The notes beneath the pieces are model-generated. The model ran no database searches and had not been told where the DNA came from. It worked only from the letters and a program-made list of their open reading frames with translations. DNA of 64,000 bases. Source: Candidatus Micrarchaeia archaeon. Its GTDB lineage: Archaea; Micrarchaeota; Micrarchaeia; Burarchaeales; JAVZCV01. The DNA is taken from contig JAVZCV010000002.1 of the NCBI GenBank assembly GCA_038874215.1, positions 6,664 to 70,663 of the forward strand, in the 5' to 3' direction. Position numbers and translations under genes: made by a program. Positions 11,010 to 45,913 of the stretch are shown piece after piece. Each line of letters opens with the position of its first letter. The first letter of the stretch is position 1.

Positions 11010-11133
11010 TCGCTGCAAAATCAGCGAAACATTTATAAATAGCCTAATAGAAATAAAAACTGCCACGTGTGGGAGCAAGGCGACGAATTATGGCAATAAG
11101 CATCCTACTCGTAGGTATATAGGAGGTGCAGCA

Positions 11134-19773: not shown

Positions 19774-19862
19774 AGCGGGCCCGGAGGGATTTTCGCGTCC
19801 TATTTCGAACCCTCGACCTACTGGTTAAGAGCCAGCCGCTCTGGCCAAGCTGAGCTACGGGC
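19774..19862 (-). tRNA. tRNA-Lys (anticodon CTT) with a ~14-nt insertion/intron in the T-loop
   Basis: On the - strand the sequence is GGGCCCG-TA-GCTC-AGCTTGGCCA-GAGC-G-GCTGG-CTCTTAA-CCAGT-AGGTC-GAGGG-TTCGAA[ATAGGACGCGAAAA]T-CCCTC-CGGGCCC-G. All stems pair and the anticodon is CTT. The T-loop is 21 nt instead of 7. Confidence 0.8.
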
Positions 19863-19899
19863 CCAGATTATAAACTCTTCCATATAAACAATAATAAAC

Positions 19900-20943: not shown

Positions 20944-21051
20944 TAGCGGGAGGTGGATTTGAACCACCGATCTCTGGGTTCCTCAAAACGTTTTGGCATC
21001 GTCAAAGGTTTGTATGAGCCCAGCGGGCACTCCATGCTACCCTATCCCGCT
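20944..21051 (-). tRNA. Initiator tRNA-Met (CAT) with a canonical 33-nt intron at 37/38
   Basis: On the - strand the sequence is AGCGGGA-TA-GGGT-...-GCCC-G-CTGGG-CTCATA[33 nt]A-CCCAG-AGATC-GGTGG-TTCAAAT-CCACC-TCCCGCT-A. An A1:U72 pair and three G:C pairs at the base of the anticodon stem are archaeal initiator hallmarks. Confidence 0.85.
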
Positions 21052-27447: not shown

Positions 27448-27999
27448 TCACTCCCTGCCAAAAACACAATACCAAAGACAATGGCACAAGGATAGCAGCA
27501 CAAGGTATTTTATAAATGTATGCGCTGAAGTCCACCCCGCGCCGTACCCAACAATCATCCACTGCCAGCCAAGTATATACTCCACCAACGTAAGCAAAAA
27601 GCCCACCATCACGACTTCAATAATGCTATGCCCCCAATCAAATTTCCTTGGTATGTAGAGAGCCCATGCCACGCTGCAGAAGAAGTAGACAGCCACGAGT
27701 TCAGCAGGTATCCCGAAAAACAAAAAAGAGCCTCCATAGAGACTCCAAAGCTTCAACCATCGCGCCATCTCCTCCATCGCAAAGAGAATACACGAAACAA
27801 CAAAACCAAAAACAAGCGCATTCAGGACAATTCTATTCCTCAGATTTCTATATGCTTCTACGAGAAACCACGTACCCGAGGAAGCGAGCATTGTCGTCCA
27901 TACCCATCTTTGCGACGGAAAATTCGCAAATGCAAAAACTGCGCAGAAACCGGAAAGCACCGCTACGATCCACATAAGATGGTGCCATTTGCCAGCCAT
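27448..27999 (-). CDS. Hypothetical membrane protein
   Basis: 5-6 TM helices, Trp-rich. Confidence 0.35.
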   Translation of the reverse strand: MAGKWHHLMWIVAVLSGFCAVFAFANFPSQRWVWTTMLASSGTWFLVEAYRNLRNRIVLNALVFGFVVSCILFAMEEMARWLKLWSLYGGSFLFFGIPAELVAVYFFCSVAWALYIPRKFDWGHSIIEVVMVGFLLTLVEYILGWQWMIVGYGAGWTSAHTFIKYLVLLSLCHCLWYCVFGRE

Positions 28000-28002
28000 G
28001 CT

Positions 28003-28959
28003 CTAACTATCCGCTCTTATATTTAAAATTCTCCCCCTATCACTTTTTTTATCCCTGCATAAAAGAACAACCCTGCTTGGCTCATATTCCGCAGATACGA
28101 TATAGCCACACACCTCTGCAAGTTCTTTGGCGAAAGCTCTTATCTCGTCATGTGTTGGCATATTGTTGAGGCTGAGCCCCCTACGCGGGTCCCGAGCCCC
28201 GCCAACATACACGAAGCTCTTAACCTCAACATATTCTGGCAGTGCTTTCTCAATGAGCTTTGCGTAACCTGCGGCATCAAGCATGTTATGCCCTTTTACA
28301 AGCGTCATTCTCAGAACGCGGCGCGTTGGCATGCTGTTTAAAATCTCCAAAGTTTCGTTGAAATTCACCCATGCTCTCTGGTACTTAGGGGCGCAAATAC
28401 GGCGATACACCTCCTCGTTTGGTGCGTTGAGGGAAACATAAAACTGGGTAGGCAGCCTTTCAAGTTCTGCAATTTGTTTGGGAAGCGTTCCGTTCGTAAC
28501 CAAAAATGTTGTCATCCCCCTCCTCCAGAACTCCTCAATCAATTCAGACATATGTGGGTAAAACATTACCTCCCCAGTAAGGCTTATTGCGGCATGCTTC
28601 GGGTTTTTAGCTTCCTCCCACATCCCTTTGCTAACCCTCTTATTCCCCCCATAACCCGATACTATCCTAAGATGTTCTGCAATAATCCATTCAACAACAT
28701 CAGCAGCTTCATCCCATTTAGCAGGGAGGTTCTCTTTTTCATCGGGCATAATCCGCCAGCAGAATATGCAACCCATGTTGCAGTATGTTGCAACAGGGGT
28801 GCACTGGATACATCGGTGGCTTTCTATCCCGTAAAAAGCATTCTTGTAGCACTTTTTCCCTTTGACAAGGGCATCGTGGAGCCATTTGCATCCCTTTACT
28901 GCGCTATGCCCGCCTGCGAAATGGTACTCTTGGTTTTTCATCCTCTCCATCAAACCCAT
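28003..28959 (-). CDS. taw1: tRNA 4-demethylwyosine synthase Taw1/TYW1 (radical SAM). Start uncertain between 28941 and 29016.
   Basis: ...GCKWLHDALVKGKKCYKNAFYGIESHRCIQCTP...CNMGCIFCWR... matches the two-cluster radical-SAM signature of archaeal Taw1. Confidence 0.8.
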   Translation of the reverse strand: MGLMERMKNQEYHFAGGHSAVKGCKWLHDALVKGKKCYKNAFYGIESHRCIQCTPVATYCNMGCIFCWRIMPDEKENLPAKWDEAADVVEWIIAEHLRIVSGYGGNKRVSKGMWEEAKNPKHAAISLTGEVMFYPHMSELIEEFWRRGMTTFLVTNGTLPKQIAELERLPTQFYVSLNAPNEEVYRRICAPKYQRAWVNFNETLEILNSMPTRRVLRMTLVKGHNMLDAAGYAKLIEKALPEYVEVKSFVYVGGARDPRRGLSLNNMPTHDEIRAFAKELAEVCGYIVSAEYEPSRVVLLCRDKKSDRGRILNIRADS

Positions 28960-28992
28960 GCGTTTTTTATTTTTCACATCATATTTATAGGC

Positions 28993-30150
28993 ATGGCGGT
29001 CCAGCTTGAGGTTCATGGGAAAAAAATAATCGTGCGCGATCCCGCTTCTGTCTCTTCACTTCAAAAGGGTTTCTATGGTGTGATGCACAAAGGCGTAATC
29101 ACCCTCTTCCCCGAGGAAGCCCTTTATCTCATAGATATAAGGAATGCAAAATGCTACGATAAAAATGGGAACGCGCTAAAATTCAACGATGTTGCCCAAA
29201 TTTTCAAAAAGAAGAAACTACTCGCCCGCTACTTCACCTATAAAGATTGGCGCGACAGAGGGCTCATAGTTCGTCCTGTTGAAGAGGCTACGGGTAACTA
29301 CGGGAGGAATCCTGTCAAAAAATATCCCATGCGCGAGTTTGAACCTCCAAAATACTCTGTTGATGGGGTCTTCTTCCCAGATGATCTTTTTACAATAATA
29401 GATGACGAAGTTGTCGGCAGAGAGCTGTATGAGAACTACTGGCTTGGCCAGTTTGCCTCATACAAAGCAGAACAAAGGGGCAGAGTAGCGAAACTTGACG
29501 CCTACGAGACTCTTTTCATGCTGAGGCACTGCAACCTCTCCCTCCATAACTCTGATGAGGAGAAGGTTATCAAGAACGCTACAAAAAGAAGAAGCGATTT
29601 CATGCTGATGTACGAGGTTTATGAGGATTGGAGGCTTCGTGGCTATATACTAAAAACTGGTTTCAAGTTTGGCACGCACTTCAGGCTCTATATGCCAGGC
29701 GCATCACCAGTTAAAAAAGGCGACGAATGGATACACAGCAAGCATGTAATCCACATATTCCCGCGTTCCAAAAAAATGATAATCTCTGAATGGGCGAGAG
29801 CAATACGGGTTGCACACAGCGTAAAGAAGACTTTTATACTTGCGATACCAGGCGCGAAGAAGAAGCACAGTTTGAAGAAACCCGATTTTCTTCTTTATCA
29901 TCGCCACAAAACAGGCATAGAGACCCCAGATACAGGAAAGCCGAAGTTTCTCATGCTATCCCTAAGCGAAGAGGAGTACATAGGGGGTGAAGAACTCGCA
30001 GATGCTATAGAAATCGCAAAGAGCTTTGGGCTTGACCTAATGCTCGCAATAGCGGATAGGGAAAGCTCTGTTACTTACTATCGTGTAAGAAGGATAGAGT
30101 TGCAGGGCAGCAAATACGAATATTACGAGATAGAATGGGAGCAACCATAA
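28993..30150 (+). CDS. endA: tRNA-splicing endonuclease EndA, long single-chain form with duplicated/extended architecture
   Basis: The N-terminus MAVQLEVHGKKIIVRDPASV...VITLFPEEALYLID is like the EndA N-domain. A degenerate repeat is YKDWRDRGLIVRPVEE. The catalytic repeat is YEDWRLRGYILKTGFKFGTHFRLY...HSKHVIHIF...RVAHSVKKTFILAIPG, containing a Tyr/His/Lys triad. There is an extra ~75-aa C-terminal segment. Confidence 0.8.
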   Translation: MAVQLEVHGKKIIVRDPASVSSLQKGFYGVMHKGVITLFPEEALYLIDIRNAKCYDKNGNALKFNDVAQIFKKKKLLARYFTYKDWRDRGLIVRPVEEATGNYGRNPVKKYPMREFEPPKYSVDGVFFPDDLFTIIDDEVVGRELYENYWLGQFASYKAEQRGRVAKLDAYETLFMLRHCNLSLHNSDEEKVIKNATKRRSDFMLMYEVYEDWRLRGYILKTGFKFGTHFRLYMPGASPVKKGDEWIHSKHVIHIFPRSKKMIISEWARAIRVAHSVKKTFILAIPGAKKKHSLKKPDFLLYHRHKTGIETPDTGKPKFLMLSLSEEEYIGGEELADAIEIAKSFGLDLMLAIADRESSVTYYRVRRIELQGSKYEYYEIEWEQP

Positions 30151-30204
30151 TCTGCGAAAGGTATTTAAACACCATATAGCCAATTTAGATAAAAGGTGGT
30201 GCTA

Positions 30205-30459
30205 ATGTCAAAATACATGATTGCAAAGCAGGTTGCAGGCAAGCGCTTAATAACAAATGATGGTGAAGAGTTGGGAAGGCTAGTGGATATAAACGTAAAC
30301 GAAGTGACTGGAAAGATTGAATCCCTCGTAATTGAGCCAAACCTTGACAATAAAACAGCAAGAAAAATGGGGAAGCAGGATGGCATGATAGTTCTTCCTT
30401 ACAAATCCGTTTTGGCTATTTCTGATCACATAATCGTCCAGAAGAAGGACCTGCTCTGA
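30205..30459 (+). CDS. PRC-barrel domain protein
   Basis: ...KRLITNDGEELGRLVDINVNEVTGKIESLVIEP... is a PRC-barrel signature. Confidence 0.6.
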   Translation: MSKYMIAKQVAGKRLITNDGEELGRLVDINVNEVTGKIESLVIEPNLDNKTARKMGKQDGMIVLPYKSVLAISDHIIVQKKDLL

Positions 30460-30513: not shown

Positions 30514-31170
30514 GTGGTAGGTCTGTCAGCAAAATTGATAGCTGGCGTGGATGAGGCGGGAAGGGGTGCAGTCATCGGCCCGCTCGTTATATGCGTCGCA
30601 GCAATAGACAAGGGAAAAGAGAACAGTCTCAGAGGGCTTGGCGTAAAAGATTCAAAAATGCTCGGAAAGGAAAGGCGTTCTGTTCTATACGAACAGATAC
30701 TCAAAATTTGTAGGGTTCGGGTGATAAAAATCAGCGCAAAGGAGCTCAACCTTCTTATGGAGAAACACACGCTCAACGAAATAGAGGCAATGGCATGCGC
30801 ACCAGCAATCGCTTCATTCAATCCAGATATAGCATATGTTGATTCGCCCGACCCGCAACCAAAAAAATTTGAGTTAAGGTTAAAGAAGTTCGGCGTATCA
30901 TGCAACCTTGTCTGTGAAAATGGCGCCGACGCAAAATACCCTATCGTTTCTGCCGCCTCAATAGTGGCGAAGGTTGAGAGAGATGCTGAAATAGACCAAA
31001 TAAAGAAAATCCTTGGCTTTGATTTCAACAGCGGCTATCCTTCCGATGAAAAAACGCGCAAGTTCTTGGAAAACAAAAAAATTGAGGGAAAACTGCTTGA
31101 CTATGTTCGCCTAAAATGGAGGACTCTCAAAAAAATTCGGCAGAAAAAAATAAGCGATTTCTTTTCATGA
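30514..31170 (+). CDS. rnhB: Ribonuclease HII
   Basis: ...IAGVDEAGRGAVIGPLVI... and ...DSKML... are present. 218 aa. Confidence 0.9.
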   Translation: MVGLSAKLIAGVDEAGRGAVIGPLVICVAAIDKGKENSLRGLGVKDSKMLGKERRSVLYEQILKICRVRVIKISAKELNLLMEKHTLNEIEAMACAPAIASFNPDIAYVDSPDPQPKKFELRLKKFGVSCNLVCENGADAKYPIVSAASIVAKVERDAEIDQIKKILGFDFNSGYPSDEKTRKFLENKKIEGKLLDYVRLKWRTLKKIRQKKISDFFS

Positions 31171-45765: not shown

Positions 45766-45913
45766 TGGGCCCGGAGGGATTTCCGCAACCTTCATTCGAA
45801 CCCTCGACCTACAGCTGTCGCAAGCGCATGTGCTAGAGTGCGCCATATAAGACATGCGTACCGAAAGGCAAGGCATTTCGGTATGCCGCTCTAGCCAGCT
45901 GAGCTACGGGCCC
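45766..45913 (-). tRNA. Long (148-nt) intron-containing tRNA gene. Isotype unresolved, and it could be a disrupted gene.
   Basis: The - strand reads GGGCCCG-TA-GCTC-AGCTGGCTA-GAGC-G...[~76 nt]...AGGTC-GAGGG-TTCGAA[TGAAGGTTGCGGAA]T-CCCTC-CGGGCCC-A. The acceptor, D and T arms are perfect and nearly identical to the tRNA-Lys at 19.8 kb, including a 14-nt T-loop insertion at the same place. About 59 extra nt sit in the anticodon region. They form an 11-bp hairpin (GCATACCGAAA/TTTCGGTACGC) and a second helix (CGCATG/CATGCG). Confidence 0.55.

Follow-up and report, generated by a model that had tools for sequence, protein, structure and literature searches.

Which kind of tRNA splicing endonuclease is encoded at positions 28993-30150 of a Candidatus Micrarchaeia archaeon sequence, and are the interrupted tRNA genes that accompany it plausible substrates? 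We have examined these questions in a 64,000-nucleotide (nt) stretch of contig JAVZCV010000002.1 (assembly GCA_038874215.1, positions 6,664 to 70,663), referred to here as the window. An earlier inspection of the letters, the sequence-only reading, had proposed that the gene (endA) specifies an EndA in which three units, one of them catalytic, are combined in a single chain (an "epsilon-like" layout), and had paired this multi-unit enzyme with non-canonical tRNA introns in the window. We find the protein to be orthologous to the epsilon2 enzyme of ARMAN-2 (Candidatus Micrarchaeum acidiphilum), for which crystal structures exist, and the pairing is borne out by the intron-bearing tRNA genes described below. 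The ARMAN-2 enzyme was discovered by Fujishima et al. 2011 (PMC3239211), its structure (4fz2) was reported by Hirata et al. 2012 (PMC3488258), and its RNA complex (9w2k) by Miyata et al. 2025 (PMC12397907). We are confident that the enzyme encoded here is an RNA-splicing endonuclease (EndA, tRNA-intron lyase) of the epsilon2 type, and it is an ordinary member of the three-unit EndA family already described from Micrarchaeota.

Identity and fold of the window protein

We used phmmer to compare the window protein with all Protein Data Bank (PDB) chains, and observed a single outstanding match, 4fz2_A (E = 1.3e-138; 9w2k has the same sequence). The match is colinear over amino acids (aa) 5-385 with two 1-residue gaps, and the two proteins are 53.7% identical over 380 columns. 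A second tier of matches consists of two-repeat alpha'2 enzymes, for example 1r0v and 2gjw, at E about 1e-24, and the alpha4 enzyme 1a79 aligns to the central unit only. Pfam searches placed the EndA N-terminal domain (tRNA_int_endo_N) at aa 5-66 and, with E = 1.9e-30, the catalytic domain at aa 203-286; the NCBIfam models for EndA subunit beta matched aa 312-370 weakly, with E-values (3.4e-5 and 1e-3) that fall short of their cutoff.

We also built an AlphaFold2 model from a family alignment of 24 members, namely the window protein and 23 homologs; the invariance of residues reported in this paper refers to that alignment. The model has a predicted local distance difference test score (pLDDT) of 84.8 and a predicted template-modelling (TM) score, pTM, of 0.83. 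In Foldseek comparisons it superposed along the whole chain on 9w2k_B and 4fz2_A, with a TM score of 0.93 in both directions and a root-mean-square deviation of 2.4-2.5 A over about 385 columns. The best alpha'2 enzymes reached TM scores of 0.47-0.53, all EndA types other than epsilon2 had query-side scores (TMq) of 0.53 or less, and single-unit EndA structures superposed on the central unit alone. Structure prediction against the known EndA types, the check that the sequence-only reading had called for, comes out for epsilon2.

A protein identical to that of the window (100%) is present in NCBI as "MAG: tRNA-intron lyase [Candidatus Micrarchaeia archaeon]". Of its relatives in the database, the best 120 share at least 63% identity with it, and nearly all have lengths of 384-422 aa (range 338-446). 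Relatives are encoded in at least 210 species-representative genomes; the best 80 of these 210 are 57-74% identical, most of them match over the full length, and almost all carry Micrarchaeota or Micrarchaeia names, with a few other names among them. Because these 80 relatives almost all carry names of that phylum and are mostly full-length, the epsilon architecture looks widespread in the phylum. Our literature searches returned no specific published survey of epsilon2 EndA across Micrarchaeota or DPANN.

Arrangement of units and functional residues

We transferred unit boundaries from the published ARMAN-2 structure (PMC3488258) by alignment; the resulting layout, alphaN-linker-alpha-linker-betaC, is given in Table 1. 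The alphaN unit is an N-terminal subdomain only and has no catalytic residues. The central alpha unit has N- and C-subdomains of its own, and betaC consists of a C-subdomain; it is related to the beta subunit of (alpha-beta)2 enzymes and has a local phmmer match to the L10 region of the Archaeoglobus fulgidus structural repeat. The length of linker 2 varies across the family, and the window version is among the shortest, although it is one residue longer than that of ARMAN-2. The Pfam catalytic-domain search gave no above-threshold match in alphaN or betaC, and the catalytic triad, Y233/H248/K279 (Y236/H251/K282 in ARMAN-2), is found in the central alpha unit only.

Residue roles in the ARMAN-2 enzyme have been set by mutagenesis and structure (PMC3239211, PMC3488258, PMC12397907), and those roles can be followed into the window protein. 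The residues that bind the bulge, R272 and W382, correspond to R275 and W384 of ARMAN-2; K221 of the dimerisation pocket corresponds to K224, and D355 of the L10 loop to D357. The ARMAN-specific loop (ASL) aligns without gaps to GTYKVSEHGNL of ARMAN-2, so that its lysine, K158, falls opposite K161, which is essential for activity and for cleavage of relaxed motifs and is the determinant of broad specificity in the ARMAN-2 enzyme (PMC3488258, PMC12397907). K158, K221, Y233, H248, R272, K279, D355 and W382 are invariant across all 24 family members, so that the window protein retains each residue whose importance in ARMAN-2 has been demonstrated by mutagenesis. The AlphaFold2 model has low pLDDT at aa 155-157, as is expected of a surface loop.

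The motifs named in the sequence-only reading could all be located: FRLY at 230-233, HSKH at 248-251, VKK at 277-279 and LAIADRESSVTYYRV at 351-365. Several details of that reading need correction. The protein has 385 aa, not 386, since the open reading frame (ORF) runs from its ATG through 385 codons plus the stop codon that ends at 30150. What had been taken for a degenerate repeat ahead of the catalytic one is linker 1 together with the N-subdomain of the alpha unit, and the C-terminal segment, put at ~75 aa, is 87 aa long by the ARMAN-2 mapping. The motif near the C-terminus is indeed EndA-like, but it is more than the beta-strand it was called, as LAIADRESS belongs to the L10 loop region.

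We considered whether the gene might specify an ordinary two-repeat alpha'2 enzyme of the Euryarchaeota type followed by an unrelated C-terminal tail, a proposal for which the total length, close to that of two-repeat enzymes, and the second-tier PDB matches could be cited. The catalytic repeat of alpha'2 enzymes lies at the C-terminus, whereas here it is central (aa 123-285) and 100 residues follow it. The C-terminal 87 aa rank with the best-conserved regions of the family and give matches to the L10 region in structural units and in beta subunits, so they are a conserved betaC with its L10 aspartate, not an unrelated tail; the whole-chain TM scores given above also separate the protein from alpha'2. 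We regard an alpha'2 enzyme with a tail as scarcely credible. As for the other types, (alpha-beta)2 enzymes have separate alpha and beta chains and here both parts lie in one uninterrupted ORF, and alpha4 enzymes consist of a single unit of ~170-180 aa, as against 385 aa and three units.

Start codon of endA

The position of the start codon bears on the same question, since initiation at the downstream ATG at 29083 would remove most of alphaN and leave a two-unit alpha-beta fusion. An in-frame GTG-ATG is present at 29080-29085, and the divergent ORF for a Taw1-like protein (see below), if read at its greatest length, shares 24 nt with an endA that starts at 28993. Yet homology to the ARMAN-2 enzyme begins at residue 5 (phmmer), residues 5-30 can be aligned to the crystallised protein, and 21 of the 23 homologs start at the methionine aligned with 28993. 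Residues 17-29 are nearly invariant in the family (P17, V20, S21, S22, L23, G26, Y28 and G29). In addition, some 20-30 nt ahead of 28993 there is an A/T-rich run that resembles a TATA box, TTTTTTATTTTT, which would fit a leaderless archaeal mRNA, and internal Met codons of the Taw1 ORF could abolish the overlap with endA. Because of where the homology begins, the aligned starts of the homologs and the conservation of residues 17-29, the 29083 start, which the sequence-only reading had named as a ground for doubt, is excluded to the extent that we give it next to no probability; the start at 28993 is upheld. For the neighbouring gene, since its longest ORF overlaps the endA start, the real Taw1 start is probably an internal Met.

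Recovery of tRNA genes from the window

Default ARAGORN and Rfam at its gathering threshold each found zero tRNAs in the 64-kb window. We therefore turned to a sub-threshold Rfam match, ARAGORN with intron options and two purpose-written stem-based scans, by which three tRNA genes were recovered. Each of them contains introns, lies on the minus strand and is intergenic (Table 1), and when the predicted introns were removed in silico, default ARAGORN called all three as clean 74-75-nt tRNAs. Two kinds of ARAGORN output were set aside: a low-stringency tRNA-Lys(ttt) at 896-989, a false positive made up mostly of G-U pairs and without a credible cloverleaf, and 29 matches at -ps85 with kilobase 'introns', which are noise.

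The sequence-only reading had described two tRNAs with T-loop insertions. Both exist, and the finding of two such genes is far beyond chance, but only one is a tRNA-Lys; the second is a tRNA-Ile(UAU) with three introns. We highlight the following observations on the three genes.

1. The initiator tRNA-Met(CAU) gene (iMet) has one intron at the canonical position 37/38, with a strict hBHBh' motif of bulge-helix-bulge (BHB) type (outer helix 5 base pairs (bp), central helix H 4 bp, inner helix 4 bp), and its spliced form is called as tRNA-Met(cat). We calibrated the BHB register on this intron: a 4-bp central helix, 3-nt bulges 3' of each strand, and cuts after the second bulge nucleotide.

2. 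The tRNA-Lys(CUU) gene has one intron, AUAGGACGCGAAAA, at 59/60 in the T-loop. Its motif consists of the 5-bp T-stem as outer helix, a UUCG/CGAA central helix and the bulges AAA and AAU; an inner helix is essentially absent, which makes the motif a relaxed hBH. The spliced form is called as tRNA-Lys(ctt), 75 nt.

3. The 148-nt tRNA-Ile(UAU) gene has, besides a 59/60 intron in the T-loop, 59 extra nucleotides in the anticodon arm. We enumerated all one- and two-deletion splice models of the gene and scored them for BHB geometry; among these, Ile(UAU) alone has BHB motifs with in-register inner helices, of 7 bp for an intron at 29/30 and of 6 bp for one at the canonical 37/38 site. The spliced gene is called as tRNA-Ile(tat), 74 nt. 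The 59/60 introns of both the Lys and the Ile gene are relaxed (outer helix 5, H 4 and inner helix 0-1 bp).

The body of the 148-nt gene resembles tRNA-Lys(CUU), and we considered a tRNA-Lys(UUU) identity, but the gene offers no way of assembling a UUUU loop. The BHB scoring led us to reject Lys(CUU), Glu(UUC) and other registers for Ile. The discriminator base, A versus G, proved unusable for telling Ile from Lys, as metagenomic Lys(UUU)-like genes with A73 occur.

The outer helix of the 37/38 motif has 2 bp in the unspliced RNA and 5 bp after removal of the 29/30 intron. Because that helix is complete only after this removal, there are hints of ordered splicing of tRNA-Ile(UAU), with the 29/30 intron taken out ahead of the 37/38 intron.

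Are the insertions spliced by EndA?

A few points weigh against our reading of the enzyme and its substrates. The central helices of the Ile 29/30 and 37/38 introns carry one mismatch each (3/4 pairs), a little outside the range of substrates on which ARMAN-2 EndA has been assayed; the boundaries of the tRNA introns have been predicted solely from the sequence; and K241 of ARMAN-2 is replaced by Ser238 in the window protein, a position at which the ARMAN-2 mutant K241A was fully active (PMC3488258). One could hold that the enzyme is an epsilon2 ortholog and that the T-loop and 29/30 insertions are nevertheless retained expansions, or are pseudogene debris, or are removed by some other activity. 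Proponents could point to those mismatches, to the lack of an inner helix in the Lys 59/60 motif and to the rejection of the genes by standard tRNA finders.

The geometry of the insertions argues otherwise. They sit exactly at the positions demanded by the BHB rule, with respect to the 4-bp helix, the 3-nt bulges and the cut after the second nucleotide, and once they are removed, the T-loop is again the 7-nt UUCGAAU and the anticodon stem again has 5 bp; alternative splice models score far worse. No other genes for Lys(CUU), Ile(UAU) or iMet were seen in the window. Further, ARMAN-2 EndA cuts a 13-nt hBH intron at 59/60 in vitro (PMC3239211).

Metagenomic DNA points in the same direction. In a metagenome scan we found 26 stretches with inserts of 11-40 nt at the 59/60 site and with a shared T-arm and acceptor context. 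The majority are in tRNA-Lys(CUU) and the others in Lys(UUU)-like and further genes. The inner helices of these inserts covary (GAUUC/GAAUC, GGUUU/AAACC and GACAG/CUGUC in tRNA-Lys(CUU)) and the CGAA strand is fixed. Because of the exact BHB register, the restoration of canonical tRNAs and the covariation in relatives, it is unlikely, indeed very improbable in our estimate, that the insertions are something other than EndA introns, and we continue to treat them as such. As a separate observation, at one metagenomic locus two multi-intron tRNAs carry an identical 11-nt T-loop intron.

Comparison with known systems

The ARMAN-2 enzyme and its ARMAN-1 ortholog (387/390 aa, against 385 here) are the closest described counterparts of the window enzyme, and its length fits the epsilon2 type, whose single chains have about 385-395 aa. 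The order of units is the same in ARMAN-2, which belongs to the same phylum, and the catalytic triad, the ASL lysine, the Arg/Trp pair at the bulge and the L10 Asp with its pocket Lys are identical. In ARMAN-2, too, tRNAs are interrupted at non-canonical sites, 59/60 included. The ASL reads ASYKAEQR in the window and GTYKVSEH in ARMAN-2, with the Tyr-Lys pair kept. [quoted passage not shown] The host tRNAs are different, Cys in ARMAN-2 and Lys(CUU) and Ile(UAU) here. The two systems also differ in tRNA-Ile(UAU), which was described from ARMAN-2 as having a single strict 25-nt intron at 37/38 (PMC3239211); the window gene has three, and in two of these the central helix contains a mismatch.

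The (alpha-beta)2 EndA of Crenarchaeota and Nanoarchaeum (3p1z, 2zyz, 3iey) resembles the window type in a broad specificity, predicted for the window enzyme, that extends to relaxed BHB motifs outside the canonical position, in an extra Lys-bearing loop near the active site, in a beta subunit to which betaC is related, and in having Trp, not Arg, at the second bulge-binding position. Unlike in these enzymes, the parts of the window protein are fused in one chain and the structural part is split around the catalytic unit; the (alpha-beta)2 subunits had TM scores of about 0.35 each to the window model (Foldseek). The ASL and the crenarchaeal CSL lie at different positions in the sequence and are not homologous (PMC3488258). 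The alpha'2 EndA of A. fulgidus (1rlv, 2gjw) is a homodimer with two catalytic and two structural units, as is predicted for the window enzyme, and has the same catalytic chemistry and L10/pocket logic. It differs in its order of units (structural then catalytic, in contrast to alphaN-catalytic-betaC), in lacking an ASL and in its narrow specificity for strict BHB motifs at 37/38, and its TM scores to the model are 0.51-0.53.

A possible mode of action

By homology with ARMAN-2 EndA, in which alphaN packs against betaC as the structural half (PMC3488258), alphaN and betaC of one window chain would together form a structural half. Two chains would then dimerise through insertion of the acidic L10 loop of betaC (D355) into the basic pocket of alpha (K221), an arrangement that would space the two Y233/H248/K279 active sites one 4-bp helix apart. 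Each alpha unit would use this triad to cleave one bulge after its second nucleotide, while R272 and W382 may stack on and hold the flipped bulge base. K158 in the ASL would grip the phosphate beside the bulge, and relaxed motifs that lack one bulge or the inner helix would therefore be acceptable. The putative substrates in the window are the strict BHB of iMet, the 59/60 introns of Lys(CUU) and Ile(UAU), and the 29/30 and 37/38 introns of Ile(UAU). Homology, fold, residue conservation and the BHB geometry of the introns are what our analysis demonstrates; dimerisation, activity and cleavage of these introns are what we infer from the ARMAN-2 system.

Neighbouring genes and other features

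The gene upstream of endA, in divergent orientation, specifies a radical-SAM enzyme of wyosine formation that is Taw1/TYW1-like (Pfam Wyosine_form and Radical_SAM). Among 80 related Micrarchaeota loci (the best 80 of 210), 27 have Taw1 and EndA paired in this divergent arrangement. Downstream of endA are genes for a small PRC-barrel protein and, after it, RNase HII, and this order beside endA recurs in about 30 of the same 80 loci. Taw1 is separated from a HAD hydrolase gene by a hydrophobic 183-aa ORF, for which the Pfam search gave no match. Elsewhere in the window there is a perfect 18-nt hairpin, UCGCUGCAAAAUCAGCGA, with an Rfam c4-a1b1 score of 20.1 bits (gathering threshold 46.7; E = 1.3); that match is almost certainly due to chance.

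Table 1. Positions in the window of endA and its units, the interrupted tRNA genes with their predicted introns, and other features
Feature	Position	Strand	Basis or remark
endA, epsilon-type (three-unit) tRNA/RNA splicing endonuclease	28993..30150	+	ORF, phmmer, NCBI identity, Foldseek
alphaN unit, aa 1-94	28993..29274	+	Pfam tRNA_int_endo_N; mapped from ARMAN-2 residues 2-97
Linker 1, aa 95-122	29275..29358	+	Mapped from ARMAN-2 linker 1, residues 98-125
alpha unit, complete, catalytic, aa 123-285	29359..29847	+	Pfam catalytic domain; ARMAN-2 residue mapping
ASL equivalent ASYKAEQRGRV, aa 155-165	29455..29487	+	Alignment; Y157 and K158 invariant
Linker 2, aa 286-298	29848..29886	+	ARMAN-2 mapping
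betaC unit, aa 299-385	29887..30147	+	Sub-cutoff NCBIfam beta; ARMAN-2 mapping; invariant D355, W382
pre-tRNA-Lys(CUU)	19776..19864	-	Rfam sub-threshold tRNA match 26.9 bits; stem scans; ARAGORN on spliced form
Lys(CUU) intron 59/60, 14 nt	19803..19790	-	Predicted
pre-initiator-tRNA-Met(CAU)	20944..21051	-	ARAGORN with intron option; BHB geometry
iMet intron 37/38, 33 nt	21012..20980	-	Predicted
pre-tRNA-Ile(UAU), 148 nt	45766..45913	-	Stem scan; splice-model enumeration; BHB scoring; ARAGORN on spliced form
Ile(UAU) intron 29/30, 30 nt	45883..45854	-	Predicted
Ile(UAU) intron 37/38, 29 nt	45845..45817	-	Predicted
Ile(UAU) intron 59/60, 15 nt	45794..45780	-	Predicted
Hydrophobic 183-aa ORF	27448..27999	-	
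Taw1/TYW1-like gene	28003..29016	-	Pfam
Small PRC-barrel protein	30196..30459	+	
RNase HII	30514..31170	+	
18-nt hairpin	11010..11027	+	Rfam c4-a1b1, below gathering threshold

Significance

Publications of 2011, 2012 and 2025 already cover the epsilon2 enzyme type, its crystal structures in RNA-free and RNA-bound form, the determinant of its specificity, its co-evolution with disrupted tRNA genes and the non-canonical introns, including those at 59/60, that occur alongside it. The identification made from the window is correct but already known, the exact protein having been deposited under the right functional name. What the window adds is modest: a three-intron tRNA-Ile(UAU) with mismatched central helices, an example of the failure of tRNA finders, and a conserved Taw1-EndA pair. 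Standard tRNA finders miss genes in genomes with an epsilon2 enzyme, and the tRNA complements of Micrarchaeota metagenome-assembled genomes (MAGs) will be under-called without BHB-aware methods. The three-intron tRNA-Ile(UAU) is a handy natural substrate for studies of ordered splicing and of tolerance to mismatched helices. It is conceivable, although we hold the proposal only tentatively, that the epsilon2 substrate range in this lineage exceeds what has been assayed so far and includes mismatched BHB motifs and the ordered removal of three introns from one tRNA, and that a three-unit EndA, often with a divergent Taw1 gene beside it, would be a phylum-wide feature of Micrarchaeota and not a peculiarity of ARMAN-1 and ARMAN-2.

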